The notes below the pieces were generated by a model, which was not told the DNA's origin, did no database searches, and saw only the letters and a program-made list of their open reading frames with translations. The position numbers and the translations under genes are program-made. From Chiloscyllium plagiosum (Eukaryota), in the NCBI RefSeq assembly GCF_004010195.1, contig NC_057756.1, forward strand, positions 9,000,320-9,064,319: a DNA stretch of 64,000 nt. The letters are read 5' to 3'. Numbering within the stretch: the first letter of the stretch is position 1; each line of letters begins with the position of its first letter. This document shows, one piece after another, positions 4,506 to 63,295 of this stretch.

Positions 4506-5226
4506 TAGCACGACCCAGAGCTTTTGGGGGACTGTGATTTTTGATCTCCATTTTAATTCATGTTCTCACTCTGACACTGAAGGTTCACAGCCTCAAGGTA
4601 GGCCATTTAAGATTGAGATGGGTAAAACATTTCTTCACTCAAAAGGATAGTAAACCTATGACCCACACTGCAGAGGCCCCACCACTTGAGTTATACCCAA
4701 GTGATGGCTAAATTTACAGATTTCAAAGGCATCAAGGGCTATGGGGGAAAAGCAGGAAGGTGGCTTTGAGACAGAGGACCAGACATGATCACACTGAATG
4801 GTAGAGGGCCAACTGGCCTACTCGTGTTCCCGGTTTCTATTCTTTGACCAAACACTTTACAGCTTTCAGGACTGAACTGTGAGTTTACACATAATCTATT
4901 CCTATTTTACTAGATTTTTCTTTTATTATCTAAACCACCAACAAACCTCACTCTTTACAACAAAAGCAATAACAAATTACAAGTATTGGCACCAGGGATA
5001 GTGCTCATTTTTCTCTTTAGAGACTTCATGACAGCCAACTATTTAGCTGGTTCCTATTTGTTTAAGGCATCTTCTAATCAAATTTGTTCAGAAGTGTAAC
5101 TACACATCTCTGAAGCAGCTGACACTTTAACCCCGCACTCTTATTTGAGAGGTAAGGTCACTACCACTACACCAACAGAGCTCCTCACTTCTGTCTTTTT
5201 TTAAAAAAAATAACATTTTTCTCTTC

Positions 5227-5412
5227 AGAGCTGAAAATGTGTTGCTGGAAAAGTGCAGCAGGTCAGGCAGCATCCAAGGAGCAGGAGAATCGACGTTTCG
5301 GGCATAAGCCATTCTCGATTCTCCTGTTCCTTTGATGCTACCTGACCTGCTGCACTTTTCCAGCAACACATTTTCAGCTCTGATCTCCAGCATCTGCAGC
5401 CCTCACTTTCTC
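5227..5412. mobile_element. Fold-back Penelope-derived short element (family A)
   Basis: Arms gctgaaaatgtgttgctggaaaagtgcagcaggtcagg / cctgacctgctgcacttttccagcaacacattttcagc are inverted repeats. Confidence 0.8.
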
Positions 5413-5869: not shown

Positions 5870-6655
5870 CTTTTTTTTTTATATTTCAAAAATATACTTT
5901 ATTCATATATATTTAATCTATACAATTGGACATGTCATCATTCTGTAAACATTCCATTTCTTTACGTATCGAAACAGGGTAATCATTCATATTCACAGGT
6001 TAGTGCGATTACATTGAGCTCAGACGCCAGCGGAGCCCAAATGACTGCGTGGGCCCCCTGTTCTTCATNNNNNNNNNNNNNNNNNNNNNNNNNNNNNNNN
6101 NNNNNNNNNNNNNNNNNNNNNNNNNNNNNNNNNNNNNNNNNNNNNNNNNNNNNNNNNNNNNNNNNNNNNNNNNNNNNNNNNNNNNNNNNNNNNNNNNNNN
6201 NNNNNNNNNNNNNNNNNNNNNNNNNNNNNNNNNNNNNNNNNNNNNNNNNNNNNNNNNNNNNNNNNNNNNNNNNNNNNNNNNNNNNNNNNNNNNNNNNNNN
6301 NNNNNNNNNNNNNNNNNNNNNNNNNNNNNNNNNNNNNNNNNNNNNNNNNNNNNNNNNNNNNNNNNNNNNNNNNNNNNNNNNNNNNNNNNNNNNNNNNNNN
6401 NNNNNNNNNNNNNNNNNNNNNNNNNNNNNNNNNNNNNNNNNNNNNNNNNNNNNNNNNNNNNNNNNNNNNNNNNNNNNNNNNNNNNNNNNNNNNNNNNNNN
6501 NNNNNNNNNNNNNNNNNNNNNNNNNNNNNNNNNNNNNNNNNNNNNNNNNNNNNNNNNNNNNNNNNNCTTGTTGGAAAGTTCTGGCGATGAGGCATTCAGC
6601 CAAATGGCTTTGGCAGTCTGCTCAGGGAACCGCTCGACAGGATCTGCCTCAGAAG
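5870..6655 (-). mobile_element. Tx1-clade LINE 3' fragment spanning the assembly gap
   Basis: Poly-T at 5871; both gap flanks match the copy at 17657-19225 (gagcccaaatgactg; cttgttggaaag.tctggcgatgaggcatt). Confidence 0.8.
6069..6566. other. Assembly gap (498 N)
   Basis: Run of N. Confidence 1.
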
Positions 6656-6762
6656 AGCTTATGCTCGAAACGTCGACTGTCCTGCTCCTCGGATGGTGCC
6701 TGAACGGCTGTGCCTTTCCAGCACCACACTTTTTGACTCAGTTTAGATGAAAACTCACTTAC

Positions 6763-8166: not shown

Positions 8167-8385
8167 GTGATTAGATTAGAGCGGTGCTGGAAAAGCACAC
8201 CAGGTTCAGGCAGCATCCGAGGAGCAGGAAAATCAACGTCTCGGGCAGGATTCATTCCTGATGAAGGGCTCCTGCCCGAAATGTCGATCTTCCCGCTCTT
8301 CGGATGCTGCTTGACCTGCTGTGCTTTTCCAGCACCATTCTAATCTTGTCTCTCATCTCCAGCATCTGCAGTCCTCACTTTCGCC
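8167..8385. mobile_element. Fold-back Penelope-derived element (family A) with 13-bp TSD
   Basis: Inverted arms; TTGATGTGGAGTG is duplicated at 8154-8166 and 8386-8398. Confidence 0.85.
8252..8290 (+). ncRNA. Minimal type I hammerhead ribozyme motif
   Basis: CTGATGA(8258-8264)-A-GGGC-TCCT-GCCC-GAAA-T-GTC; short stem I (TC/GA). Confidence 0.7.
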
Positions 8386-8467
8386 TTGATGTGGAGTGAT
8401 GTCCTTCAAGCACAAACTTCTGGCTTCAGGCTAGTGACCTAAAGGGAAAAAAACATAAATAGACAGA

Positions 8468-9199: not shown

Positions 9200-10120
9200 T
9201 CTTTGGATTTGCACAGAGCCCTCCAGCCATTTCCAGTACAGTGCCAGCTGCATGTCATGTTGTCCTCTCATGTCTCCCACCCTGTGTCAGAGGGAGCCAA
9301 ACCCTGAAGGGCATAAAATGGAAGAGGACCACCTTCTGATTCTCCCAATCTTGCTCTGCTCACTGGAAGCACCTCGTCCTGCAAGAGAAAAGATAAAATG
9401 TCGATGTGTGTGCAGCCCTGTCATTGTCTGTAGTGCCTACCATAATTGAATAACTGGAAACATGGATTAGAATGATTTGGAGGTGCCGGTGTTGTACTGG
9501 GGTGGACAGAGTTAAAAATCACACAACACCAGGTTATAGTCCAACAGGTTTATTCAGAAGCACTAGCTTTTGGAGTGCTGCTCCTTCGTCAGGTAGTTAG
9601 AGCAGCGCTCTGAAAGCTAGTGCTTCCAAATAAACCTGTTGGACTATAACCTGGTGTTGTGTGATTTTTAATTATGGAAACATGGAGTCAGTGAGGGTTC
9701 AGGGTATTGTTAGCAGCATTAATAGGTGTGTGACGATAAGGTAGCTGTTATTTGAGAACACTGAGTATTCAGGAGTGTTGCTAGGTTTCTCGTGGGATGT
9801 GTGATGCATTGAGCACTGGGAGGCTATTCATGTTCTGGGTACGAGATACCATGGGCATACACATTTAACAACCTTAACAGCCAATGTGAGGTCATTTGAC
9901 TTCTTGTGATGCTGTTACCAAATCTTTGGGCCAGACATTAGGAATGAACTTCCCTGACCACCTGCTCCCATTCTATCAGAGTGTCTTCTGGGCCCCTGAA
10001 CTTCTCCTGTCCATTATCAGCACTAAGCCTCCAGCACAATATCTTTGCCCCTTTGTCTTCTCTCTTTGTTAACATTGGCATGCAATGCTATTCAGCAGCA
10101 GCCCCCTGAAATTCAGTGCA
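9200..10120 (-). mobile_element. Ancient Harbinger-type Myb/SANT DNA-binding gene relic
   Basis: Minus strand about 9880-10040 reads LEA...EWEQVVREVHS...IW*QHHKKSNDL, resembling the WEEVA...RTWQQCRKKFNDL motif; boundaries uncertain. Confidence 0.5.
9467..9674. mobile_element. Fold-back Penelope-derived element (family B) with 12-bp TSD
   Basis: Arms ttaaaaatcacacaacaccaggttatagtccaacaggtttatt and its inverse; TGGAAACATGGA at 9455-9466 and 9675-9686; minus-strand CTGACGA-AGGAG..CTCC-AAAA-GCTA core. Confidence 0.85.
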
Positions 10121-13820: not shown

Positions 13821-14044
13821 TGATCAAGATCAGATTCGAAAAGTGTGGAACTGGAAAGGCACAGCAGGTCAGGCATCTAACGAGCAGGAGAAGTGATGTT
13901 TCAGGCATAAGTGCTTCATCAGGAACATCAAAGAATCTTAGTAAAATTGGAATCAATGGGGATCAGATGAAAATTCTCCAGTTCCTGGTGAAGGGCTTTT
14001 GCCCGAAACGTCCATTTTCCTGCTCCTCGGATACTGCCTGACCT

Positions 14045-15060
14045 GCTGATTGATTGAAGTCACATCTGGCGTATATGAAGATGATTGTGGTTGTTGGAAG
14101 TCAGCCACCTCAGCTCCAAGGCATCTCTGCAGGAGTTCCTCAGGGCAGTGTCTTCTGTTCAACCATCTTCATCTGCTTCATCAATGACTTTCCCTCAGTC
14201 ATAAGGTCAGAAATGGGAATCTTCAATGATGATTGCACAATTTTGAGCACCATTTGCCCCTTAGATACTCAAGAGACCATGTTCAAATGCAACAACATCT
14301 GGACAATATCCAAGTTTGGACTGACAAGTAGCAGGTAACATTTGCATTAGATAAATGCCAGGCAATGACCATCTCCAATAGGAAACAATCTAAACACTGC
14401 CCCTTGTTCATTCAGTGGTGTTGCCATCACTGAAATCTATCAACATTCTGGGGGCTTGCCACTGACTCAAATGAAATTGCCATGGCTACAAGAGCAGGTC
14501 AGAGGCTAGGGGTACTGTGGTGAGTAATTCACGTCCTGACTCCCCAAAGCCTGTCCATCATCTACAAGGCATAAGTCATGAATGTGATGGTATATTCCCA
14601 TGCCTGAATGGGTGCAGCTCCAACAACATGCAAGAAACTTGACAGCATCCAGGACTGACATCATATCTACAAGCATCCAGTTGCTCAACCACTGACTCTT
14701 GGTAGTAGCCGTGTGTATCATCTCCAAGATGCACTGCAGGAATTCACTAAAGATCATGAGTTAGCACCTTCCAAACCAACAATCGCTTCCATTGAGAAGG
14801 ACAAGGGCAGCAGATACATGGGAAGACCACCCCATGCAAGTTACACTCCGAGCCAATCACCATCCTGACTTGGAAATATATTGCTGTTCCTTCACTGTCA
14901 CTGGGTTAAAATACTGGAATTCCCTCCCTAATGGCATTGTGGGTTGACAGCACATGGACTGCAGCGGTTCAAACTGGCAGCACACCAGTATCTTGTCAAG
15001 GATATCTAGGGACAGGCAATAAATGATGACCAACTCATGATGCCCACATCCCATGAGTAA
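14045..15060 (+). mobile_element. CR1-group LINE RT C-terminal part and 3' UTR
   Basis: PQGS and xDD motifs; 3' end gggacaggcaataaatg...cccacatcccatgagtaaa. Confidence 0.75.
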
Positions 15061-19225: not shown

Positions 19226-20074
19226 GAATCAACCTCTTCAGATATTTCATGCTACACCATGGGAGCAGGAGGAACTGAAGCCTCTCATGAGTTCAATAAC
19301 ATATGACCTATTATAATCGGATGTGGTTTCCATTTGCTTCAGTAAGCTTTTGCCTCTGTAGGATGAGAGTCCCAAGTTTTGTTTTCAAAATTATTGGTTG
19401 GTTATGAGTTCCATTTCTCCTTTAGAACTAAGCAGTTCCCTTTTCTCTGAAAGGTGCAAAGATACTAAAGCAGAAATGGACCTCAACCAACCCAATGATT
19501 TTTCAAAACCAACCAAATCAAAACGGGAACAGTGCTGGCCCATAGATATTTCATGCTTGGGAATTCAGCACAGTTCACAATTTCACTTGTACAGTTACAC
19601 ACAGTGTCATTATAGTCCCCAGTTCCCCAAATCCAGCTTAAATAAAACCAATATTCTTGTTGCTGCCTTTGCATGTCCTTACTTTTACAGTAAATGGCAT
19701 CTTTATATATTTTTTAATAAAACCTTCCACTCCTCGGTGCTATACAACCTTTGCAGTTGAACTTGATGAAGGAATCCCTGTCTTGTTGTGAGGATTTTGT
19801 TGGTTTTAAGCTGATGATATATTATGATGGTATAGCCAGCCTTGATTGAGTGTGTTTAGAATTATTTTTCCAATTCTTCGAAATTGATTTTGCCTCACAG
19901 TTGTAGCTTAATTACGCCTTACATAAAGAAGAAATGTATGAAGCAGGTAGAATGAACAGGTTACTCTCTGCCTACATTCAGAACATTATAAACACATCGA
20001 GCCAAAAAGATATACAGCTCAGAAACAGACCTTTCGGTCCAACTCAACCCTTCCTATTCATATATCCATCCAGC

Positions 20075-22810: not shown

Positions 22811-23732
22811 ACAAAACTTAGTTGATCCCTAGCTGTGAGTTCCTGATACTGAGGTTTCTCAAAGTTAGGCTGTGAATTTCAATAGTTTTTAACATTTTTC
22901 TTAGACTGAACTTCAATGTTCAGAGATACTTGCAACTAAACAGTGCAGGCAACCAGCTGTGAAAGTTCACTACCTGGGCAGTCAGTTGCGCAGGTTCATT
23001 GCTTTTTACTCCACCTCCACATGGTAGTTACTACTCCAAGAAATCGAGCAAATTAGCTCCAACACTGAAAAATACTTCAAAAAAGGAGCAGCTCTTACAG
23101 TCATAACTTTCTCCCATCCTCTGTCTTGGCATGCCAATCAGGAATGGGCACTGATGCCAGTCTTGTCCCGGACCCAAGAATCAAAATGTGCCGACCTTCA
23201 TCCACTCTCAGGGGTATGATACAACAACCAAAACTCTGGGCTTCTAGCTGTCTTCACCCTCTGTGTCACTGTGGAAACATCCATCAAAAAGAAAGAAAAA
23301 GCAGCATAACAATCAAACAGTAAACACACTGTTAAAGAAACTGGGTCTCAAAAGCCATGGGAAAACACCCCAGTTGTGCCCATGTCATGTGACAAACAGC
23401 ACTGGAGAAATGCAAACAATTGCTGCCCTTGGAATTGAAATCAAATGGAACTATGGACGGTTACATCACTAAAAGAGGCCATGTCACCCATTGTGTCTGT
23501 GCTAGCTCTGTAAGGCTACACCAGCCTCAACCTTTGTAGCTTCTTTCTGACATTCTCATAAATTTAAATGTAATAGTTTGAATGTCACTGTTTAAATTAG
23601 AATCAATTTAAAAGCAGTACTGTGAAGGAACGACGTTTTCGAACCTCCAAAATCCTAAAGCAGAAGCTTCTTGTTAATTCAACATCATTTGATTCCAGCT
23701 TCCTGATTGAACAAAATGATGCTTCCAGAATG

Positions 23733-23913
23733 ATGTGGAGGAGCCAGTGTTGGACTGGGGTGGGCAAAACTAAAAATCGCACAACACCAAGTTACAGTCC
23801 AACAGGTTTATTTGGAGGTACTAGCTTTTGGAGCGAAGGAGCAGCACTCCAAAAGCTAGTGCCTCCAAATAAACCTGTTCAACTATAACCTGGTGTTGTG
23901 AGATTTTTAACTA
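23733..23913. mobile_element. Fold-back Penelope-derived element (family B) with 11-bp TSD
   Basis: Inverted arms; CTTCCAGAATG at 23722-23732 and 23914-23924. Confidence 0.85.
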
Positions 23914-24044
23914 CTTCCAGAATGGCAGACTCGGTTAGTCAAGAGTGAGACTACTGTCTTTAAGTATATGTACAATTGCTCAATATTTACAGGCCCAACT
24001 GGGCAGGCTGGTGGTTATGCCTACATGAGCCCAACCCTGTTCAT

Positions 24045-24250: not shown

Positions 24251-25126
24251 CCATCACCATATTCTTCTAGTCCATTCTCCCTCATGTACTTATCACATTT
24301 AAATGTATTATATTATTCACCACAATCACTCCCTATGACAGCAAGTTCTACATTCTCCTTGCTCTCTAGGCAAAGAGTTACTCTTGAATTTCTGATTGGA
24401 ATTATTGGTGACAGTTTAATATTGATGGTCCTTAACTCTGTTCTCACCCATAATTACAGCAGTGACTTCACTTCAGAAATTATTTAACTGGTTGAAAAGA
24501 GCCTTGGAATTACTTCTGGTTGCGAATATAGCAATGTTAAAGCAGAGAAGAGTGACACATTTGCTTTTAGGAAGAAGTATGAGGAAAGGCAAAATAAATT
24601 ATAGGTATAATTTTAGAGACAGTGTGGAAATGGAGTGACTGGGCATGAGTGCCTGTCAATCTTTGAAGGTTGCTTATTAGGTTATTGAGTATTGTGTTCA
24701 AATCTCCCATTTCAGGAAGAATGTCAAAGTCTTGTGGTGAGCTTAAGAAGAGACTTACTTGAATGAGGGGCTTAATTTACTGTGGAAAGATTGGAGAAGC
24801 TGAATATATCCTCCTTAGAGGAGATACGTTAACAGGCTGGATCTATCCTCCTTAGAGGAGATAAGTTAAGAGGGAGATTTAATAGAAGCAGAAATAAGGA
24901 GGAACTATTTTCCGGGGCAGGAAGGTTAATCAACGGAGAGGCGCAGATTGAAGAGAATTGTTAAAAGAACAAATCAGAATTTTCTTTCATGCTGTAAGTT
25001 GTTATGATCTGGAACATGTTGCTTACAGCACATGTAATGGGTTTTCAAAAGGGAATTGAATAAATATTTGAAGTTGAAAAAATTGCAGTGTTATGAAGAA
25101 TGGGATCGATGGTTATATATTTCAAA

Positions 25127-25305
25127 GAGGATGAAATGAGGACAGCAGATGCTGGAGATCAGAGTCGAGAGTGTGATGCTGGAAAAACACAGCAGGTCAG
25201 ACAGCAACAGAGGAGCAGGAGAATCAACATTTCAGGCAAAAGCCCTTCTCCTGCTCCTCAGATGCTGACTGACCTGCTGTGCTTTTCCAGCACCCCATTC
25301 TCGAC
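25127..25305. mobile_element. Fold-back family A element with 12-bp TSD, inside an old plus-strand CR1 (about 24540-25370)
   Basis: ATATATTTCAAA at 25115-25126 and 25306-25317. Confidence 0.8.
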
Positions 25306-25639
25306 ATATATTTCAAAAAGTTGAGACAGACATGTTGGCTGAGTGGCCTCCTCCTGTACAGTATTATTCTAAATCTTTCTTAAAGATAGAAATAATCAGG
25401 CTGTGACAAACATGAGTATTATTAAGATGTAAATATTCTGCTAACGGCAAGTCCCAGCATGTTGCTGCCTCAGTTTTAGATATCTGAATCAACCTGTTAG
25501 GGATGTTATTACACACCTTTGGTGTAGGTGGGTCAGCTCTCCTGGCTCAGAAGGAGGGATGTTATTACTACACCACAATAGGTCCTGAAGCAACTGCTGA
25601 ATCATTGCTGAAACTAAGGATTAAACCTTTTGAATCTTC

Positions 25640-25840
25640 AGAGTCAAGATTAGAGTGGTGCTGGAAAAGCACAGCAGGTCAAGGAGCAGGAAAATCGATG
25701 TTTCAGGTCCTGATGAAGGGCTTTTGCCCGAACCGTCGATTTTCCTGCTCCTCAGAGGCTGCCTGACCTGCTGTGCTTTTCCAGCACCACTCTAATCTTG
25801 ACTCTGATCTCCAGCATCTGTAGTCCTCACTTACACCTTC
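25640..25840. mobile_element. Fold-back family A element with mutated hammerhead core
   Basis: CTGATGAAGGGCTTTTGCCCGAACCGTC at 25710-25737 between inverted arms. Confidence 0.8.
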
Positions 25841-27869
25841 GATCTAACACTCCCCCAATTGAGTTATTTCTGCTGACCACCGAACTCCGTTTACAGCTGC
25901 ATCATTTGATGAAAGGTCATTTAGCTTGAAACATTAATGCGGTTTATTTCCACAGGTGCTGTCTGACCTGTGAGTGTTTCTAGCTCTTTATGTCCAGAAG
26001 CCATCTGCTGGAAGTCGGTTAACAGATAAAAATTGGAACTCTTCATTAATAGCCCCTTAATTTCTCACTCTGAGAAATGACACAGCTTTTACGCACTGAT
26101 GATCCTCTACTCAAACTCCCTTGTGCCACTTTTGATGGTCATCATTTGAAACTCTTAAGGGTCTTGTCAGTAAGATTCTGATTTAGCTTTTGGGAAAATT
26201 TGGTCAGATGTTCCAATCAGCTGAGGTACCAAATAATTCTGAGTTTCCCCAAAATCTCTACACATGACAAATTGAGGAACTTCATTCATTGTATTTCGTT
26301 TGTTGACTCGATTATATATATTCAGCTGGGAGACGCCTGTGGGAGTCAACAAAAAATATTGTTTCTGCTCAGAACTGGTTTTTAGTTTCATAAGCATCAG
26401 CAGTGAAACTGAAGCACTGGGTTTTAATACTCTCCATTTGAAGTATTTGAAAGAAAATAAGATGAGGTGCTTCTACTCCAGGTGAGTTATTTATCTGCTA
26501 AAACATAAATGTTAATTGTTAGATTTGCTCAGGTGAACTCCTGATTTTATATTCCAGTATATTTTGTGTAGGCTGACAATATTTTATCAAATGCCAAATT
26601 TTGGTTGGGAAATTACCAAAGTTTACAGCAGAAAAGATGCTATTTGGCCCATCATGTTTGCGCCAGTCATCAGTGTTCACTATGGGGTGTTCTATTCATT
26701 TTGTATTTAGTTTATCACCGTTAACCATGAAATAGGGGCTCCATCAGAATCATTGACAGATACAACAGAGGAGAAGGCAATTCAGCCAATCAGAACCTGT
26801 GCCAGGTCTGTCCAATTAATTTCATCCTTCCTCCCCTAACTCTTTCCATCATAGCCCTGAACTTATCTTCTCTTTGAGTATTTCTCCAATGCTCCCGCTT
26901 TGGAAAATTCCTGTTGAATCAGCATCCACCTCCTCTAAGGTGGTTCCAGATCACAACAAGGAAAAACATATTCTCCTTAAACCCCCTTCTGGTTGTTTTG
27001 CAGCTCCCTTCAATCTGTGTCTCTCTGATAATGACGCTCCTGTCACTGGAAATAGCGTGTCACTATTTACTCTGTCAACACCTTTCATGTTTTTGAACAA
27101 CATGATTAAATCTCCCTTTTTACCTTCTCTGTGCTGATGAGAAGAATCCTAGTTTTTCCGGTCACTGAAGTAATATAAATTAGGTAAATAAAGTAAATCA
27201 AGAAACGTAATACTGGGAGGAAAACTACTTTGTTTAAATAATTCAGACCATGAATGTCCATTTTTTCACAGTAAACCCCAAGTCCAACCCCACTGTCTAA
27301 CTCATCGCACACTTTCTTTAATATACCACCCAGCCTAATCCTACTCACCCTCTCGATCCCTATAACCTTTAATATTCCATCCAGCCTACATCCACTCATC
27401 CCTCACTCCCCATTCCATTTCATATTACACCTAACCTAATCCCACTCTCTCTGACTCATTGCCCCAGTTTAATCTGACTCTCCCCCTCTCCCCCATACTC
27501 TTTAATATCGTAAACACTCTCTCGCTCCTTACAGCCTGTAATATTCATCCAATCTGATGCCATTCTCCCTTCTTAGCCCCCATGCCATTTAATAAGTCAT
27601 TTAGTTTGATCCTCACTCCCTGTAAACTTTAACATCCTGTTCTAATTCCATTCACCCCTCACATTCCATGCCCATTAATATCTCAGTCAGTCTAATACTA
27701 TTTTCCTGTTGATTGTCCACATATCTTTTAATATTATATTTGTTTGTAGCAACCATCTTATTCCTTTTTATTTGTGGTATTTCCATAACAGAATATAGCA
27801 GAGAATCTTAGAATTGATCACCTTATGTGTAGAAGAACCTGTTAACATTTTTCTAACCTTAGTGATTTT

Positions 27870-28035
27870 TGTGACGATTTGTAGCTCAGGCTGATGATAA
27901 GCCTGTAAGTTTGCTCGCTGAGCTGGAAGGTTTGTTTTCAGACGTTGCGTCACCATACTAGGTAGCATCATCAGTGAGAGTCTCCAGTGAAACGTTCGAA
28001 AGCGAACCTTCAAGCTCAGCAAGCAAACTCATAGA
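27870..28035 (-). mobile_element. Penelope-type terminal repeat (family C), partly folded back
   Basis: Minus strand CTGATGA-TGCTACC-TAGTAT-GGTGAC-GCAAC-GTC; inverted ttgctcgctgagct / agctcagcaagcaa; related piece at 31890-31960. Confidence 0.65.
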
Positions 28036-28260: not shown

Positions 28261-28309
28261 TGTATATGTTCATATTGACACCAGATCTGTGTCAATATGA
28301 ACATATACA
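28261..28309. repeat. Perfect 21-bp inverted repeat with 7-nt loop
   Basis: TGTATATGTTCATATTGACAC-CAGATCT-GTGTCAATATGAACATATACA. Confidence 0.95.
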
Positions 28310-31698: not shown

Positions 31699-32609
31699 GC
31701 ATTAGTGATAATGAAACACATGGACTTGAGTATTTGAAAGGAGAAGGCTTAGAACAATACATTCACCGGCTCTAGCTTGAGTTTATACCCGAACTTTGCA
31801 ACATCCATTCTCCCGGTCTCCCCGGTGACCAACTGGAAAGACAGCAGTCTTTTCCTTATCTGATTGGTTGATCTTTAACTCCCCTTCCCAAGTTTTGAGA
31901 AGATTTGTAGCTCAGGTTGAGGTTCTGGACGTCGGTTTGCTCGCTGAGCTGGAAGGTTCATTTGAATTTTCCAAACGAATGAATGAACCTTTGCCTTCCC
32001 AACTCAAACATATTTGGAATTACTAAACAGAAATATTGAAAGAAATGTGTTTTCTAATGCCTCAGGTTTTGCTCCTAGCTCTATCTTGGTGATTAATCTT
32101 CAACTCCTGCAGACTCTAGGACAATCCTAAAGGATTGGAAAGAACATCACCACTTCAGAGCAATGAAGGATGGACAATAAATAGCAGCCTTGTGGTTAAT
32201 GCTTGCATTCTGCACTGAACTGCTGTTATCGTCCAAAGAGTCACGAGTTGTTACAAACTAGTTGTTTTACTATTTTGCAGTTGCATTTGTATTTGGGGAG
32301 CTTGCCCCAAATTGGGGGAACAAGAGGAAGAACATCATCCCAGAAAACATTAATGATTACAGAACTATTCCAAAAAGATCAGTTCTGATGCACTAGGATC
32401 TCAGTGAAAGAATGGCTTGTGCTGGATATTGGCCAGGTCTGGAGAAAAATGAGGAGCACTTGACAGCTGCTTCCTCTAAAGATTGACAGAAGTTTGAATT
32501 GGGAAACTTGTCCTGCTCTACAACGGGTGAGTAAATCATGTTTGTATGCAGATACTTACATGACTTTAATCTGTATGTGAAATGTTGTTATACCCTCAGT
32601 AAATGTGAG

Positions 32610-41149: not shown

Positions 41150-42870
41150 CTGCAGCTTTTCCTCTCCATGCTGCTCTTTAAATGAACGCGAATGTGGAGA
41201 AAAACTGCATTTGTTTCCCTATACAATGGCAGGGTTATGAAATAGCTACAGATTTGTGAAGCCAGCCAGAGGAACCATGAGTTGAGAAGGAACTGTCTCA
41301 AAATGTATCCCACTCACAGAAAAGTTGAGAAAAAAAATTTGGCAGAAATTTTAAAAACTTTGAACCACTGGCATATTTTATTAATGAATGGTACATATTC
41401 ATTGTCAGGGGATCAAACTGAAAAAAAAAATCTACTGATCGTTTCTGAATGTCATTAAGTCAGCTCACAGAATCCTGTGAATTCACATAATTTATAGACA
41501 ATTTAATTAAAGATAGGATTGTGTGAGGTATAAGAGATGCTGCAGTCAGAGCACGTCTACTGAACAAGGAAAGAATTACAGCAGTTGACAAGTGCAGAAG
41601 TGTTGAGGTTGTGAACAGGCAGCTGGAGTACCTTCAAGGCAGGACAGGCCATGTGTTTCCACTTAATCATAGACACCACAGACAAAAAAAGCCCAGAACA
41701 ATCAGAGGTAAAGGGCAGGGCACAAATACTACTGAGGACATCATGAAAAGGAGAAGAAGGCATGTCGGACTTGGGGAAAGTAGCCTCCCCATTGTAAGAA
41801 GCTGAATTAATTTGTGCACTTGTATCTAACAAAAGGCAGCCCGATAAGTAGGCACAAATAGCCATTGAACAGACATTGACTGAAGATTCTGATGAAATTC
41901 CACTTTACCATAGAGCAAGTTGTTTCAGAGTGGATGAAGTGTGGAGCTGGAAAAAGCACAGCAGATCAAGCAGCATCAGAGGAGAAGGCGAGTTGATGTT
42001 TCAGGTCAGAACCCTACAAGTTGACTCCCCTTCTCTGTGGAGAGGCTGAACAGGCTGGGGCTGTTTTCCCTGGAGTGTCGGAGGCTGAGGGGTGACCTTA
42101 TAGAGGTTTATAAAATTATGAGGGGCATGGATAGGATAAATAGACAATGTCTTTTCCCTGGGGTCGGGGAGTCCAGAGCTAGAGGGCATAAGTTTAGGGT
42201 GAGAGGGGAAAGATATAAAAGAGTCCTAAGGGGCAACTTTTTCACACAGAGGGTGGTACGTATATGGAATGAGCTGCCAGAGGATGTGATGGAGGCTGGT
42301 ACAATTACAACATTTAAGAAGCATTTGGATGGGTATATGAATAGGAAGGGTTTGGAGGGATATGGGCCGGGTGCTGGCAGGTGGGACTAGATTGGGTTGG
42401 GATATCTGATCAGCATGGACGGATTGGACTGAAGGGTCTGTTTCCATGCTGTACATCTCTATGACTCTATGACTTGCTGTGCTTTGTCCAGCTCCACACT
42501 GACTATCCAGTGCCTGCAGTTCTCACTTTCTCCAACAAGTTGTTTCAGTCAAGTTGATAGATGCAACATGATTTGTGATTGTTTGAATGGGGATTGCAGA
42601 AGAAGAACATAAGTCAGCATGAAGTGTCAGACACTGATGTGCTCTGTAACTTAATGTACTTCACAGACCAGCCTGAAGTGATGCAACATGGTGACCCAAA
42701 GACATAGCCCTTGAAAGTGATATTGATGGCACCATGCTTATGCCAGGAGGACACATTACTCTACAAGCCCATTGTGACAATATTAACAAAGGTCTGGAGT
42801 TCCAGATTGTAGAGAGCAAGCCATTGCCACTGTTTCAATTGCAGCAAGACTGTAGATTGGAGTACAAAAC
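41150..42870 (+). mobile_element. Highly degenerate Gypsy-like gag/protease relic interrupted by younger elements
   Basis: ESCEF...LIKDRIV*GIRDAAVRARLL at about 41470-41565; zinc-knuckle-like remnant at about 41760-41825. Confidence 0.55.
41930..42535 (+). mobile_element. Family A fold-back element with a CR1 3' end (42040-42475) inside
   Basis: Arms gtggagctggaaaaagcacagca / tgctgtgctttgtccagctccac; TSD CAAGTTGTTTCAG on both sides. Confidence 0.8.
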
Positions 42871-43258
42871 CTTCCTCCACCACAACAAGGGTAGAGTCCC
42901 TAGTCCTCACATTCCACCCCACTAACCTCCAATCCAACAGATCAACATGCACCACTTCCGCCACCTGCAGTCTGACCCCACAACCAAAATGATATTTCTC
43001 TCCCCATCCCCATCCACATTTTGCAGGGACCATTCCCTCCACAGCTCCCTCGATGTGTCCACACTCCCCACCAATCCCTCCTCCACACCCAAAACCTTCC
43101 CCTGTGGCCACAGGAGGTGCAATTCCTGCCCCCACACCTCCCCTCTCACTTCCACCCAAAGCCTCAAAGAATCATTCCAGGTCCAGCAGAGATTCGCGTG
43201 CGTTTCCTCTAACCTGATTTATTGCATTCATTGCTCCCAGTGTGGTCTCCTCTACATA
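42870..43258 (+). mobile_element. Penelope-like element ORF fragment (linker and start of GIY-YIG endonuclease)
   Basis: RVP..HP...HFRHLQSDPTT...FPC..RRCNSCPH...FQVQQRFACVSSNLIYCIHCSQCGLLYI. Confidence 0.85.
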
Positions 43259-52217: not shown

Positions 52218-52422
52218 GAATTCTGGATTAGTGGTGCTGGAAGAGCACAGCAGTTCAGGCAGCATCCAAGGAGCAGCGAAATCGATGTTTTGGGCAAAAG
52301 CCCTTCTTTGCCCGAAACGTCGATTTCACTGCTCCTTGGATGCTGCCTGAACTGCTGTGCTCTTCCAGCACCATTAATCCAGAATCTGGTTTCCAGCATC
52401 TGCAGTCATTGTTTTTACCTCA
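52218..52422. mobile_element. Fold-back family A element
   Basis: Near-perfect inverted arms ggattagtggtgctggaagagcacagcagttcaggcagcatccaaggagc; flanking CATTGCTTT(G/A)GAATT duplicated. Confidence 0.85.
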
Positions 52423-52577
52423 TTGCTTTAGAATTGACATTCCTATAGAAATTAACTTTGCGAGAGAAATTGACATTGTGAGAGACTTGACAAATACAGT
52501 TACACCCAAACCACAGAAACCACAAGAGTATAAGAATGTGAGCCATGATCCAACAGAGAAATCTGCCTTTTAACATC

Positions 52578-53085: not shown

Positions 53086-54029
53086 GTCTTTTAACATCTA
53101 AGCAGCAGCCTTGCACCATCAATGTAGTTGTCTCGTTTTTGCAATTGTACCATCCATGTAACTGCCACACTTCTGCAATAAAGAATACATTGTGTAGTTC
53201 CCGTCCCCGGTTTTTCCTATTCCCAGGGGAAACGAGTACCGAACAGTAACTTTAACTGCAAACTTCATGTCAGTGGGAAAACTGAGTTAGTCTTTTTACA
53301 TTAACTGTTAGACCTGGTGTATTTGACCCCGCAGTGAAATCAAGCATTTGAATAATCATCTGACAATACTGAATGGGATGTGTTGGCCATGATCAAAATG
53401 AGGCAGTAGAGGGAACTGCAGATGCTAGAGATTAGGGTCAAGATTAGAGTGGGGCTGCCTGACCTGCTGTGCCTTTGCAGCACCACTCTAATCTTGACCA
53501 GGATCAAAATGAGTCTTTTCGTCTATTGCAAGTGTCAGTCCCGAAATCTCCACTGACACCATTAAGGTGAAGTGTATAAACGTCCTCATCAGTGACCCTT
53601 CCCTCTGTGTGGTGTGTTGTTAAATTTTTCCATTGATCGGCAGTTTTCATGTTTATACACAAAAGATTTTGATAAGATCTGGTCATTGGACGGGGCTAAT
53701 CTGGCGTAGAATGTTGTCATTTTTTTTGGTGAAAACTGATTATTTTACCTTTGGTATCTATAGTGGCAAAAGAGAAACTAGGTCCCTATTATAGAAAGTG
53801 ATGCTTGTAGATGGGCTGTGCAGATGAGGGTTTATTAACTATTTGACCTGAGGAGGCTGGTACAATTACAGCATTTAAAAGGCATCTCGATGGGTATATG
53901 AATAGGCCGGGTGCTGGCAGGTGGGACTAGATTAGGTTGGGATATCAGGTTGGCATGGAGGAGTTGGACCGAAAGGTCTGTTTCCATGCTGTACATTTAT
54001 GACTCCATGCCAACGCAGTTTTAAAAAAA

Positions 54030-54619: not shown

Positions 54620-56520
54620 GTAATAGGAGTAGGCCATTTGGCCCATCGGACCTGCTCCTCCATTCATTAAGATCATGGCTGATCTGTTCTCATCTATCCT
54701 GATGAAGAGCTTATGCTTGAATGTTGATTCTCCTGCTCCTCGGATGCTGTCTGACTGGCTGTGCTTTTCCAGCACCACACTCTTGACTCTGATCTCTCCA
54801 TCGTCTCAGCTCCTGCTACCTGCATTTTGCCCGTAACCCTTAATTCCCCTACCATGCAAAAACCCATTCAACTGTGTTTTGAATATATTTAATGAAGCTG
54901 CCTCTATTGCTTCCTTGGGCAGGAAGTTCCACTGATTCACTACTCTTTGGGAAAAGCAGTTCCTCCTCATCTCTGTCCTAAATCTACTCTCCCTAATCTT
55001 GAGGCCATGTCCCCTCATCCTAGTCTCACCCACCAGTGAAAACAACCTGCCTGCCTCTATCTTATCTCTCCCTTTCATAATTTTCTGTTTCTAAAAGTAC
55101 CCTCTCATTCTTCTAAACTTTAGCAAGTACAGTCCCAGGCAGCTCAACCTCTCCTCAATGGGTAACCCCCTCAACTCCGGAATTAACCTGGTGAAACCTC
55201 TCTGCACCGCCTCCAAAGCCAGTATATCCTTCCTTAAGTAAGGAGACCAGAACTGCACACACAATACTCCAGGTACTGCCTCACTAACTCCTTGTACAGA
55301 ATGTCCCTGCTCTTAAATTCAATCCTTCTAGCAATGAAAACCAGTGTGCTGTTTGTCTTCAAATTTCTGCAAATTCACCTGCAAATCAAATTTCTGTGAT
55401 TTATGTATGAGTACTCCTAAGTCCCTCTGCACAACATCATGCTGCAATCTTTTACCATTTAAATAATACTCTGACCTACTATTTGTACTCCCAGAGTGGA
55501 TAACCTCACATTTACCACCATTGTATTCCATCTGCCAGACCCTTGCCCACTCACGTAACCTATCTAAATCTCTCTGCAGACCCTCCACATCCTCTGCACA
55601 GTTTGCCTTTCCACTCAATTTAGTGTCATCAGCAAACCTGGATATGGTACACTCGCTTTCCTCTTCCAAGCCATTAAAAATAGGATGAACAGTTGTAGGC
55701 CCAACACCAACCTCTGTGGCACCCCACCCACCACTGATGTCCAACAGAAAAACACCTATTTACCCCAACTCTCTATTTTCTATTGGTTAACCAATCCTCT
55801 CTCCATGCTAGTACATTCCCCACACTTCATGCATTCTTATCTTATGGATGACACTTTTATGCGGCACCTTATTGAATGCCTTCTGGAAATCAAGTCTACA
55901 ACATCTACCTGTTCCCCTCCAATCACCATGCTTGTTACATCCTCAAGAACTCCAGTAAGTTTGTCAAACACAACCTTCTCTTCTTGAATCCATGCTGCAT
56001 CTGCCTGATGGAACCCTTTCCATCCAGGTGTCTCACTATTTCTTCATTAATGTTAGCCTTCAGTATTTTTCCAACTACAGATGTTCAACTGACTGGCCTA
56101 TAATTACCTGCCTTTTATCTACACCCTTTTTTAAACAGCGGTGTAACATTCGCTGTCTTCCAGTCTGCTGGGACCTGCCCGGAGACAACTGAATTTTGGT
56201 AAATCACCACTAATGCACCTACTATCACTTCCACCATTTCTTTCAGCATCCTGGACCAGGGGATCTATCTACCTTTTGACCCACAAGTTTGCTCAACACT
56301 ACCCCTTTAGTGATAACAATTGAATCGAGGTCCTCACCTTCCATCGGATCCTTAATATCATTCTTTTGCAAGTTAGATACATCTTCCATTGTTAAGACCG
56401 ACACAAAATATTCAAGGCCTTGGCCATTTCAGAATTACACAATGTTAAATCCCCTTTCTCATCCTGCAAGGGACCTACGTCCACTTTAGCCACTCTATTC
56501 CATTTTATATATTTATAACA
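54620..56520 (-). mobile_element. CR1 ORF2 fragment with a nested family A piece (54698-54800)
   Basis: SRFADDTKLSG, QRDLGV, MRGHGLKI. Confidence 0.88.
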
Positions 56521-58529: not shown

Positions 58530-59352
58530 CAGTCAGCATAAATTGTCCAAGGGAAATCATGCCTCATGAACTTGATTGAGTTTTTGAGGACTGATGAGGG
58601 CAGAGCAGTGGTCATGAACTATATGGACTTCAGTAAGGCTTTGAACAATGTTCCTGATGGAAGACTGGTTAGCAAGGTTAGATTACGTGGAATAAAGGGA
58701 GAACTAGCCAGTTGGTTAAAGCACTGGCTCATGGATAGAAAACAGAAGGTGGTGGTGGAGGATTTCTGTGACTGGAGACCTGTGACCAGTGGAGTGCCAC
58801 AAAGATTGGTCCCGGGTCCACTGTTTTTTGTCAGTTATATAAATGATTTGGATATGAACATGCGGTATGTGGTTAGTAAGTTTGTAGATGATACCAAAAT
58901 TGGAGGTGTAGTGGACAGTGAAGGTTACCTAAGAGTACAATGGCATCTTGATCAGATGAATCAATGGGCTGAGTGGCAGATGGAGTTTAATTTGGACAAA
59001 TGTGAGGTGCTGCGTTTTGGAAAGGCAAATCAGGGCAAGACTTGTACACTTAATGGTAAGGTCCTGGGGAGAGTTGCTGAACCAAGAGACCTTGGAGTTC
59101 ATAGTTCCTTGAAAGTAGAGTCGCAGGTTGATAGGATAGTGAAGAAAGTGTTTGGTAGCTTGCCTTTATTGATCAGTGCATATAGTATAGGAGTTGGGAG
59201 TTCATGGTGCGGCTGTTCAAGACATTGGTTAGGCCACTGTTGGGAGTACTGTGTGCAATTCTGGTATGCTGTGAAACTTGAAAGAGTTCAGAAAAGATTC
59301 ACAAGGATGTTGCCAAGGTTGGAAGATTTGAGCTGTAAGGAGAGGTTGTACA
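58530..59352 (+). mobile_element. CR1 ORF2 RT fragment
   Basis: YMDFSKA, SGVPQ, SKFVDDTKIGG, RVQKRFTRMLP. Confidence 0.9.
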
Positions 59353-60148
59353 GGATGGTACGGTGGCTCAGTGCTTAGCACTGTTGCCTCACAGCACCAG
59401 GGATCCAGGTTCAAATGACAACACCCTCAGAGCCCTCCACTATCACCTGATGAAGGAGCATCGCTCCTAAAGCTAGTGTGCTTCCAATGAAACCTGTTGG
59501 ACTATAACCTGGTGGTGTGTGATTTTTAACTTTGTACCTTGAAGACATTCTCTTCCTCTCTCTACAAGAATCTCAGTGAGTCTCTCTCTCTCTCACTCAC
59601 TCACTGCAACCCCCAGGTCATCTCCTTTGCTCCGAAGTTCTTCAACATGTACTGACCAGCTCAGCACCAGGAGTTGGGAGTTCATGTGCGGCTGTTCAAG
59701 ACATTGGTTAGGCCACTGTTGGGAGTACTGTGTGCAATTCTGGTATGCTGTGAAACTTGAAAGAGTTCAGAAAAGATTCACAAGGATGTTGCCAAGACTG
59801 GAAGATTTGAGGTGTAGGGAGAGGTTGTACAGGATGGTACGGTGGCTCAGTGCTTAGCACTGTTGCCTCACAGCACCAGGGATCCAGGTTCAAATGACAA
59901 CACCCTCAGAGCCCTCCATTATCACCTGATGAAGGAGCATCGCTCCTAAAGCTAGTGTGCTTCCAATGAAACCTGTTGGACTATAACCTGGTGGTGTGTG
60001 ATTTTTAACTTTGTACCTTGAAGACATTCTCTTCCTCTCTCTACAAGAATCTCAGTGAGTCTCTCTCTCTCTCACTCACTCACTGCAACCCCCAGGTCAT
60101 CTCCTTTGCTCCGAAGTTCTTCAACATGTACTGACCAGCTCAGCACCA
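59189..60148 (+). repeat. Near-perfect approx. 480-bp tandem duplication (CR1 piece + SINE head + family B tail)
   Basis: aggagttgggagttcatg at 59189 and 59669; both copies end tgaccagctcagcacc. Confidence 0.95.
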
Positions 60149-60149
60149 C

Positions 60150-60385
60150 CCTCACTACCTGTCGGACCTGCCAATCTTCCTTCCCACATTTCCGCTCCAC
60201 CCTCCTCTCCGACCTATCACCTTTACCCCACCTCCAGTCACCTATTGCACTCTTTGCTACCTTCTCCCCCCCCCCCCCCCCCCCCCTGCCTCATTCCCGA
60301 TGAAGGGCATTTGCCCGAAACGTCGATTTTCCTGCTTCTCGGATGCTGCCTGACCTGCTGTGCTTTTCCAGCACCACTGTGATCT
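60150..60385 (+). mobile_element. Penelope-type 3' region with family A tail
   Basis: C-rich tract followed by cattcccgatgaagggcatttgcccgaaacgtcgatttt. Confidence 0.75.
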
Positions 60386-60459
60386 TTGCTCTAAGACTGG
60401 TGACTCCGAACATGTTCTGGGTCAGTGATGAATATTTACTGTTTGAGGAAATGAAGGGA

Positions 60460-60665
60460 GTCAGAATGGTGGGGGGGCGGGGGGGTGATCGGTTCTTTTC
60501 ACCTTCGGACCGGGTTTTGTCTATTTCAGTAAATGCCGCGTTCGGCTGGATTCAGACTTGGCCTGTTCAGTCAGCGACTGCGTAGTCCCGTTTGAACAGC
60601 GGGTTTAATTTAACAATAATCGGGTTATTTTAAACACTGTAGGGGATCCTGTGAGGTATGGAAAA
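60460..60665. promoter_or_regulatory. Small CpG-enriched promoter-like patch
   Basis: GGGGCGGGG GC box at about 60474, many CpGs, possible donor GAG|GTATGG at about 60655. Confidence 0.35.
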
Positions 60666-62619
60666 AGTAAACACCCAAAAATTCCTTGCAACAAAATCCT
60701 TATTTATCTAAACGAAAAACTTCAAGCTAAAAAGGAATCTTATTTAAATTTGTAAACGATATTTCTGTTTCATGTTTTAAGAAATGACGCTAAGTAATTT
60801 ATTTATCCGCGCACTTTGAACGGAATACCAAATAATTTTACTGCTCCTCGGATGCTGCCTGAATTGCTGTGCTCTTCCAGCACCACTAATCCCGAACCTG
60901 GTTTCCAGCATCTGCAGTCATTGTTTTTAACCTACCAATTGATTGCCGAATGTGTATTTGATTTTGGAAGAGTCCAAGGCAGTAGTAAACAGGCGGGTGG
61001 CGCTGGGTTCTCTGATTTTTTTTTGGTAACAGGAAATGTAAAACTGATGGCGCTAGTTTCAGCTGTAGATAGAAAATGGAGGTGGTGGATTGGGGGATTG
61101 TGCTTTACAAAGCAAATATATTTAATATAGAATATAAAATATCAAACAACCAGCTGATGAAGAAGCAGCGCTCCGAGAGATAGTGTTTCCAAATAAACCT
61201 GTTGGACTATAGCCTGATGTTATGTAATTTTTAACTTGACAAAATATAGCTTTAACTGAAAACTCTATGTCAATCCGAAATAGAGATTATAACTGTCAAA
61301 CACTCACTATTTGGACAATCTGATGTGTTTAAGCCTGTATTTGTACAGTGTCTCCTATATTTTAAATGCCTGAAATTTAATAAGATAGGGAGCCCTTCAT
61401 TCCGGATGAAGGGCTTTTGCCCGAAACGTCGATTTTCCTGCACCTCTGATGCTGCCTGAACTGCTGTGCTTTTCCCGCACCACTCCAATCTAGAATCTGA
61501 CCTCTAGCATCTGCAGTGCTCACTTATGCCTAGCGTACATCTATATAACGTACATCTGTACACCATTACAAGTTTCACTGACGAATCGTGCCCTAATGGA
61601 GTCTGTAAACATTGGTTCCGCTTTGTTAAAGTCAGTTCTTTGGGTCGGTCTGAATTTAAACTCGAAGTCGGTAAGGTATTGAGAGAACTCACATTGGCGA
61701 ATGTAGTGGGAAGGGGATATTTAAATGGAGTTTATCCAGGCGGCACATCATAACAGGTTCAGGTCTCGCTGCATTGACCACACTCCGTGGACTGGACGGG
61801 AATGAATTCCGAGCGGAATGTGAGGCTGAGATTGTCCGACCCGAGTGATTATGTTACCGTTTAGATCTGAACCTGTATTTGGAAGACGCCAAGAATGATC
61901 TTTTTGATTATATAACGTACAAAGAAGGAAATGGGCTGATTTTAAGCTGAAAGATTTAATTGGAGTGGTATTTGGAAACTATCACTGAGCTGGATGTATC
62001 TGAAGAATTCGGTGAGAGACCCTCTCCCCGGGATCCCCTGTCTGTGCTTTATCTATAAATATTTCCCTTAATTGGAATCTGTTTGTATGAGCACGGCAAG
62101 ATTTTTGGCAAGACCTGATCATTGGTCAGGACGAATCTGCTGTCCGTTCTGATGCTGTTTTTGTCCAGACTGATTGTGAGAATTGACAGGTTGAGATTTT
62201 ACCTGAATGAGTCTACTTCAGTGTAGAAAGCTGAGATTTTCAGAAGTGGATTCTGATTGTGATCTGAACATTTTTACTTTATTCAGTTGAGAGTGGGAAG
62301 CAAGCTAAAGAGATACCCAATGATTTATGTGAAAATTTGAATTCTCCAATTAAGCAATTTTACTCTTTTATACTCTCCATATTCCAGAGTCAATATTAAC
62401 CGTTCCGTTCCGAAAAGAGAAATTTAGTGAGTGTATGGTTGAATTTAACTAACTTTTGGTGGGAAATGAACAATGGACAACTAAACAGTAAAATGTTCAA
62501 TTTTATTTCAGAATTCCATTCAGCTGAACATTGTTTTAGACTGGCAGGAATGGTCAGATTATTCCCATTTATATCCTGTGCAAGGATTTATCAAATCCTA
62601 ATCCAATATTTTGAATTGG

Positions 62620-63295
62620 AGCTGTCGATGTTGAATTGGGGTGGACAAGATTAAAAATTACACAACACCATAGATGGTTACATCTATAACCATAGGTTAT
62701 AGCTGTAACAGGGTTATTTGGAAGCATTAGCTTTCCAGCTGCTGCCTCTTCATCATGGTTATGGAACATGACCATGCGACACAGAATCTATAGCAAAGGC
62801 GTGACAATGCCATGGAGTTGCAATGATATATTAATCTACATTAATTTTTTAAAAACCCACAACATCAGGTATTAATTCTTAAACAAATTTGGATTAAGTC
62901 TGTCGTCTTTTAGAATGGGATATGGTGGTTTGGGTTCTTCAGTATGCAAATCTCAGGACTCCTTCTAATTTATATTCTCCAGGTGGCATCAATTTATCTA
63001 ACAATGTGTAATTTCAGCTCAGACTATGTGTGAAGGGAAAGACTTAACCAATGTTGAGTCAGTTCTATTTCTAAAGTGGGGCTGACAGAATCTTCCATGG
63101 ATTTCTGCAGGTTTTGAGCAAAATAATTCTGCAAATACAAATTCACCCAATAAACGTCTGTGTGTGTGGATGCAATTCAGAGACACTGGGAGCGTAAATC
63201 CATGTAAGATTCTGTCAACCCCACTTTATAAATAGAACTGACTCAACATTGGTACAGTTTTTAGCTTCACACGTGGAATGCACTGTCTGAGTGTA
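62620..63295 (-). mobile_element. Old Penelope-type (family B) element with inverted segment
   Basis: Family B tail at 62620-62760; inverted repeat 63047-63104 / 63196-63253. Confidence 0.65.

Follow-up and report, generated by a model that had tools for sequence, protein, structure and literature searches.

A fold-back at positions 9467-9674 of a 64,000-nucleotide stretch of the Chiloscyllium plagiosum genome (contig NC_057756.1; hereafter the window, whose numbering is used throughout) carries on one arm a sequence resembling a hammerhead ribozyme. The question raised by this locus is whether it belongs to a lineage separate from the other hammerhead-bearing fold-backs in the window and, if so, what kind of element deposits such short copies, and whether the ribozyme pattern belongs to the copies or to a parent element. 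These fold-backs are referred to as family A, and the 9467 copy together with its relatives as family B.

Two fold-back families and their insertion sites

The element at 9467-9674 is built from two unequal inverted arms. The long arm (9467-9599, minus strand) contains the hammerhead motif, the arm proper and a tail, all in ribozyme sense, while the short arm (9600-9674, plus strand) begins inside stem II, has neither CUGAUGA nor tail, and carries AATAAA at 9629-9634. The tail is an AC-rich segment of 38 nt (9472-9509, minus strand), and this copy has about five extra bases (9467-9471) past the modal family end at 9472. A second fold-back lies at 23733-23913 (23722-23924 with its target-site duplications), with the long arm and tail on the minus strand and CUGAUGA in neither arm. 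The extra 38 nt are present on the long arm and absent from the short arm in both window fold-backs (2/2). The arms match over 77 nt at 91% in the 9467 copy and over 63 nt at 90% in the 23733 copy, and family B fold-backs constitute insertions of 180-210 bp without an open reading frame.

Exact target-site duplications (TSDs) of 12 bp (9455-9466 and 9675-9686) and 11 bp (23722-23732 and 23914-23924) directly adjoin the 9467 and 23733 copies, as the preliminary description had reported. Among random position pairs allowed a slack of 8 nt per end, 12 nt was reached in 11 of 19,775 and 11 nt in 22 of 19,775. TSDs of at least 8 nt were found at these two of five independent loci and at none of the three single-arm loci.

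Using blastn within the window, family B was delimited to 9467-9674, 23727-23913, 59427-59535, 59906-60014, 61148-61237 and 62612-62755. The single-arm copies at 59427-59535 and 59906-60014 (plus strand, T at the G12 position) sit in one 480-bp tandem duplication (98.8% identical), which leaves five independent loci. Both the core and helix III are damaged in the single-arm copy at 61148-61237 (plus strand). The single-arm copy at 62612-62790 (minus strand, upstream end approximate) is older, has a tail and an internal insertion, and by eye reaches further upstream of the core; reading this upstream sequence in three frames gave no open frame. A candidate seventh copy (62840-62960) aligned poorly and was left out of the count. 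The tandem duplication (59189-60148) is recent, spans LINE and SINE pieces together with the family B arm, and could be an assembly artefact. LINE- and SINE-like repeats abound in the rest of the window, and an assembly gap of 498 N (6069-6566) falls in a LINE-like segment.

Family A occupies 13 loci (5222-5410, 6651-6739, 8172-8387, 13827-14048, 25123-25305, 25635-25839, 41937-42018, 52220-52425, 53415-53498, 54697-54797, 60291-60396, 60835-60929 and 61389-61531). Several of these are fold-backs, the helix III palindrome is ACGU, and reading from the core AUG meets a stop at codon 18 in three of three copies. Family B had been proposed as a family of its own, and this separation was upheld: for all three family A copies tested, of 11 extracted, local similarity to the family B arms was no better than that of shuffled sequences (p 0.07-0.79). 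A third short repeat family (27867-28020 and 31893-31958) has one copy folded back, and the hammerhead core is gone in both copies. An inverted repeat at 63015-63285, with 90-nt arms (84%) and a 91-nt spacer, is unrelated to families A and B, and no TSD was found for it. A perfect 21-bp inverted repeat with a 7-nt loop (28261-28309) and an imperfect hairpin (19378-19512) are single copies in the window.

The hammerhead motif in window copies and in the family majority

In the 9467 copy, a minimal type I hammerhead motif can be drawn on the minus strand at 9561-9595 (position numbering after PMC4209133 and general hammerhead usage). Stem I would pair 9595-9593 with 9563-9561, and is followed by the core (9592-9586), an unpaired A (9585), stem II (9584-9572), the G12 position (9571, A in this copy) and helix III (9568-9565), with the predicted cut after 9564. 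Scanning the window with a strict minimal-hammerhead pattern returned no copy of family A or B, and no window copy is intact. A relaxed pattern gave five matches (9592 minus, 59447 and 59926 in family B; 60297 and 61403 in family A) and none in 60 resampled windows; note that two of the three family B matches, 59447 and 59926, are duplicates of each other. Searches against Rfam returned no hammerhead family at E up to 5 for the window or at E up to 10 for 59400-61600, and gave only sub-threshold matches to hairpin-type families.

The G12 column over seven aligned window arms reads three G, three A and one T. Because the window alone cannot settle a consensus from such a split, public data sets were aligned to 9450-9602 at 80% likeness, yielding 64,007 contigs from X2, 58,653 from X12, 8,298 from X17 and 2,755 reads from X21. 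X2 and X12 are DNA runs, the latter under another organism label; X17 carries another organism label and is RNA by guess, and X21 is an RNA run. Majority shares are weighted by contig depth and biased towards the reference copy, which has mutant letters.

The family majority over the contigs reads CUGAUGA-A-GGAGC-AGC-GCUCC-GAAA-GC-UA-GUG, and has the CUGANGA core with an unpaired base before stem II. U7 is the majority state (9588 is A in 86% of X2 and 91% of X12), and G12 makes up 58% (X2), 53% (X12) and 57% (X17) of depth even though the reference copy has the mutant letter. Stem II is closed by G10.1-C11.1 and followed by GAAA; C11.1 is changed in 12-17% of depth, and the outermost (fifth) pair is the majority state in X2 only (50%, versus 42% in X12 and 46% in X17). 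Helix III, AGCU, is self-complementary and would form a 4-bp self-duplex of -4.5 kcal/mol. The cut triplet, of the form NUH, is CUA, with a CUU variant at 4% of DNA depth. Helix I has three base pairs (CAC/GUG in the 59444 copy, UAC/GUG in 9595-9561), and 67% of its cells are paired over four decayed copies. This majority motif agrees with the published consensus, CUGANGAH..GAAAN-palindrome-NUH (PMC4209133 supplement). In each DNA run, about 880 contigs part from the family sequence at 9554; they represent a related subfamily that shares the arm, but its helix III region reads AAGCUU (U at position 17) and its stem I has another 3' strand.

The hammerhead core claimed earlier for family B is thus restored by the majority letters, rather than by any single window copy. 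GAAA and stem II pairing, the two features whose loss from a wider consensus would have spoken against the motif, are both kept by the majority in the public DNA runs. The palindromic AGCT of stem III was confirmed, and the stem II strand given as AGGAGC needs one correction: GGAGC pairs with GCUCC, and the first A stays unpaired, between positions 9 and 10.1. The commonest motif changes lie at two CpG sites (9571/9572 and 9576/9577), as expected for neutral decay after insertion. Inserted family B copies are probably dead as ribozymes and decaying at CpG sites, that of G12 included.

It had also been argued that independent lineages swap their stems around a constant core, and that this is natural covariation evidence. 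The first part stands, in that a separate family keeps GAAA, stem II and an AGCU helix III in its majority. The second is overstated, because families A and B cannot be aligned, so that what they share is a motif grammar and not statistical covariation. A covariation test within family B (seven window arms) gave two two-sided changes, both from the decayed 62612 copy, and did not reach significance, as 33 of 500 shuffles scored as high. Judged by its letters, the family B majority fits selection on the hammerhead fold in the parent elements, where we infer a minimal, dimer-type motif to have been selected. The stem-replacement inference is not new; the same argument appears in Cervera and de la Pena 2014 (PMC4209133), who described minimal hammerheads in Penelope-like elements (PLEs) with replaced stems and palindromic helix III sequences that include AGCU. 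These authors reported several consensus families per genome, "full of covariations", with an unpaired base between 9 and 10.1, a G10.1-C11.1 pair and palindromic 15.2/16.2, and low cleavage in vitro that was seen only for dimers or extended forms. With several hammerhead-bearing Penelope families per genome in print since 2014, stem swapping as first claimed matters little.

A probable poly(A) signal, a predicted hairpin and possible editing in family transcripts

An AAUAAA hexamer (9549-9554, minus strand) starts 10 nt after the predicted cut and is present in five of eight family B window arms. In the DNA runs, the most frequent variant (9553 T>A, 27% and 25%) turns it into AUUAAA, which accounts for about a quarter of family depth. 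AUUAAA is the second most used poly(A) hexamer. In X21, RNA reads turn into poly(A) at 9534-9538 (minus strand), these being reads of family copies and not assigned to the 9467 locus: among the loose ends listed, 630 reads become a T-run before 9534 and 460 before 9537 (1,090 of 2,755). Poly(A) starts 11-15 nt past AAUAAA, a GU/U-rich stretch lies next (9531-9514), and strand depth climbs from 512 to 1,947. Internal priming is unlikely because the family sequence at the poly(A) site has only two A; the X21 poly(A) reads may include loci with a templated A-run. The reads come from one sample, about 2% of one run and perhaps few loci, and have at least four different upstream continuations. A search for RNA data sets containing the 9467 locus itself listed none, a result that does not bear on whether this copy is expressed. 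The family B arm seems to carry a working poly(A) signal, at least in a subset of the transcribed copies.

In the alignment of PMC4209133, a hexamer was counted by eye, without shuffle control, within 15 nt after the cut in 11 of 56 rows (AAUAAA in 9, AUUAAA in 2), where base composition leads one to expect roughly 3 to 5; the same hexamers occurred in the U-rich 5' flanks of 0 of 56 rows. Against a general poly(A) signal, 45 of these 56 published rows and all six family A arms checked are without a hexamer. The passages of PMC4209133 consulted call the 3' flank "AU-rich" with no mention of a poly(A) signal, and those of PMC2377424 contain no match to "polyadenylation". A literature search that took in few subscription papers found no statement linking a poly(A) signal to the PLE hammerhead cut site. 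The poly(A) signal, and not stem swapping, is the addition to the known picture, and would matter more if true.

A transcript of 9455-9686 is predicted to fold as one long hairpin (-120 kcal/mol, z -18.5), and fold-back transcripts would lock the hammerhead motif inside it. At the predicted cut, RNA depth in X21 has no step (1,801 to 1,741 per bin), and no pile-up of ends was found there among the loose ends listed, although a cut product of 30 nt would escape detection. In X21, minor T>C changes are higher in read pairs whose first mate is plus, and A>G changes in minus pairs, at nine of nine listed sites (sign test p 0.002, with sites that are not independent and 9518 not significant alone). 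C>T/G>A controls gave 7/15, or 7/17 when two omitted control rows are counted by hand. The test used 35 of 40 listed rows (of 57), with the near-majority rows 9556, 9571 and 9576 excluded. In X17, the same editing-type sites are raised a median 3.7-fold over DNA, and controls 1.1-fold. An editing-like change falls in the hammerhead core at 9568 (family position A15.1), where T>C reaches 10% in one RNA strand class versus 0.2% in DNA. The strand-consistent changes appear to fit A-to-I editing of family B hairpins; the pattern could also arise from alleles private to a small number of dominant loci. Penelope repeats are among the most edited in lizard and frog, and self-folding repeats are preferred ADAR targets (PMC5625713, PMC10636886); in contrast to those studies, the changes described here come from a single raw RNA run plus a set of contigs, unmatched to DNA from the same individual.

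Origin of the family and comparison with known elements

Family B is, very probably, the terminal-repeat (pLTR) end module of one endonuclease-bearing PLE lineage in a vertebrate genome. The family comprises very many copies with a head of hammerhead pattern, an arm and, in some, a 38-nt tail, and it is further marked by head-to-head fold-backs, TSDs and AT-rich flanks. Among the loose ends listed for X2, two 3' end clusters lie 38 nt apart, at 9510-9512 (1,623, 690 and 535 contigs) and 9472 (872 contigs); both clusters, with AT-rich flanks, are repeated in X12. Opposite-strand joints between a tail end and a tail-less end (9472/9510) were also seen in 12 contigs of X2 and 11 of X12, and are tail-to-tail, the reverse of the usual fold-back. 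PLE insertions are known to consist of an inverted, 5'-truncated copy with a 30-40 bp tail at one end and a TSD (Craig 2021, PMC8557442; Arkhipova 2013, PMC3846280). In vitro, the protein of a lizard PLE cleaves both strands of AT-rich DNA and extends them, and reverse transcription begins at two sites that define the tail (Frangieh 2024, PMC11167929).

By this route, the RT/GIY-YIG protein of the element would make a staggered cut in AT-rich DNA, and each 3' end would prime reverse transcription of the element RNA, from one of two start sites separated by 38 nt. Both short cDNAs would halt early, near the hammerhead, and be joined head to head, and repair would generate the TSD; dual priming and head-to-head joining are drawn from the in vitro results of PMC11167929. 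A decayed PLE ORF fragment in the window (42888-43258, plus strand), which adjoins no family B copy, contains a CxxxxCxxC linker and the start of a GIY-YIG domain. It has five database homologs (40-64% identical), four of which show a GIY-YIG match (one at the Pfam cut-off and three below it); the fragment itself gave no Pfam match above cut-off. Its linker suggests the Neptune or Nematis clade, going by the motifs in PMC8557442. No full-length parent linking family B with an RT/GIY-YIG ORF was found, and pattern scans of viral contigs, metagenome contigs and prokaryote genomes gave no matches.

Strong terminal inverted arms and TSDs would also be produced by a MITE-like palindromic DNA element moving as one unit, in which the hammerhead pattern is incidental, and palindromic DNA transposons are common in vertebrates (PMC5625713). 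We find this barely credible here: the arms are unequal with a tail on one side only, three of five loci are single-arm, TSD length is not constant (11 and 12), the centres differ between the two window fold-backs, and opposite-strand joints are scattered over many positions in the public contigs. It is very unlikely that the genomic fold-backs are themselves active ribozymes kept by the host. No window copy passes the strict pattern, up to about 42-47% of DNA depth has lost G12, the hairpin would exclude the hammerhead fold, and the X21 depth and listed ends at the cut show neither drop nor pile-up, although the majority sequence has the full motif and copies are transcribed in both directions in X21.

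Family B might instead be a non-autonomous mini-element (retrozyme- or SINE-like) that makes its own short transcript and uses PLE proteins in trans, its copies not being truncated versions of a coding element. Copies begin within about 10 nt upstream of the core, an early stop follows the core AUG, polyadenylated sense reads are present in X21, and animal retrozymes have been described as non-autonomous PLE derivatives (bioRxiv 10.64898/2026.07.22.740005). We nevertheless regard it as rather unlikely, since the 62612 copy and 231 RNA reads extend upstream of the core, polyadenylated RNA, whose poly(A) sites precede both 3' ends, could not itself template the tail, and the window holds no head-to-tail tandem arrays of the unit. 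Unlike in a non-LTR retrozyme, the only tandem pair in the window is the 480-bp duplication, which includes flanking LINE/SINE and other sequence and a broken core.

Within the preferred reading, that of a PLE end module, the order of the signals leads to a tentative and somewhat doubtful proposal: the pLTR of family B, and perhaps of a subset of PLEs across animals, may be built like the R/U5 of an LTR and give strong-stop-like mini-insertions. Transcription would begin a short way upstream of the hammerhead, and the RNA would then present, in order, the cut site, AAUAAA/AUUAAA, the poly(A) site, the GU-rich element and the two RT start sites. The 9467 long arm, which extends about 7 nt beyond C3, is compatible with such an RNA start, and in family B polyadenylation occurs upstream of either 3' end used by the copies. 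With both RT start sites placed beyond the poly(A) site, polyadenylated RNA could not template the tail from its 3' repeat, so that only the 5' repeat would be primable; priming at the pLTR-ORF junction (PMC11167929) is a likeness for this. RT would run off the RNA 5' end after 85-125 nt, which would make the mini-insertions strong-stop-like. The poly(A) tail would be clipped off when the hammerhead in the 3' repeat cleaves, and ribozyme removal of a poly(A) tail has been described for mammalian Clec2 mRNAs (PMC6765202). The function of PLE hammerheads is considered unclear (PMC8557442), and their cleavage is dispensable in vitro (PMC11167929). If the proposal is true, a poly(A) site between ribozyme and RT starts would explain both the position of the ribozyme and the abundance of 85-125 nt copies. 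Poly(A) signals would then be seeded by something like 10^5 copies (a rough extrapolation from window density), on both strands where these are fold-backs, and the family B repeat would contribute many alternative 3' ends and editable hairpins to host transcripts.

Family B resembles the PLE architecture of PMC3846280 and PMC8557442 in its head-to-head inverted copy and one-end tail, with TSDs of 11-12 bp here and 8-10 bp there; unlike those elements, the whole insertion is only 180-210 bp and has no ORF. Family B also resembles Poseidon PAc of the green anole (PMC11167929), where two RT start sites define the tail, the start region is AC-rich, targets are AT-rich, both strands are cleaved and extended, and the hammerhead lies about 80-120 nt upstream of the ends. 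PAc cleavage was assayed and is protein-assisted, whereas the family B hammerhead is predicted from sequence; and, unlike in PAc, the core AUG is followed by an early stop in two of two family B copies translated and, by eye, in the majority motif. The motif itself matches the minimal hammerhead of metazoan PLE pLTRs (PMC4209133), with the CUGANGA core, the unpaired 9/10.1 base, G10.1-C11.1 and a 3-bp helix I, and its G/C palindrome at 15.2/16.2 also occurs in turtle, rotifer and schistosome rows of the supplement. A difference is that the 56 alignment rows include no cartilaginous fish, and "shark" has no match in the part of the supplement searched. Common to the families of PMC4209133 and to those described here are unrelated consensus families per genome, mostly solo truncated copies, and opposite-strand pairs.
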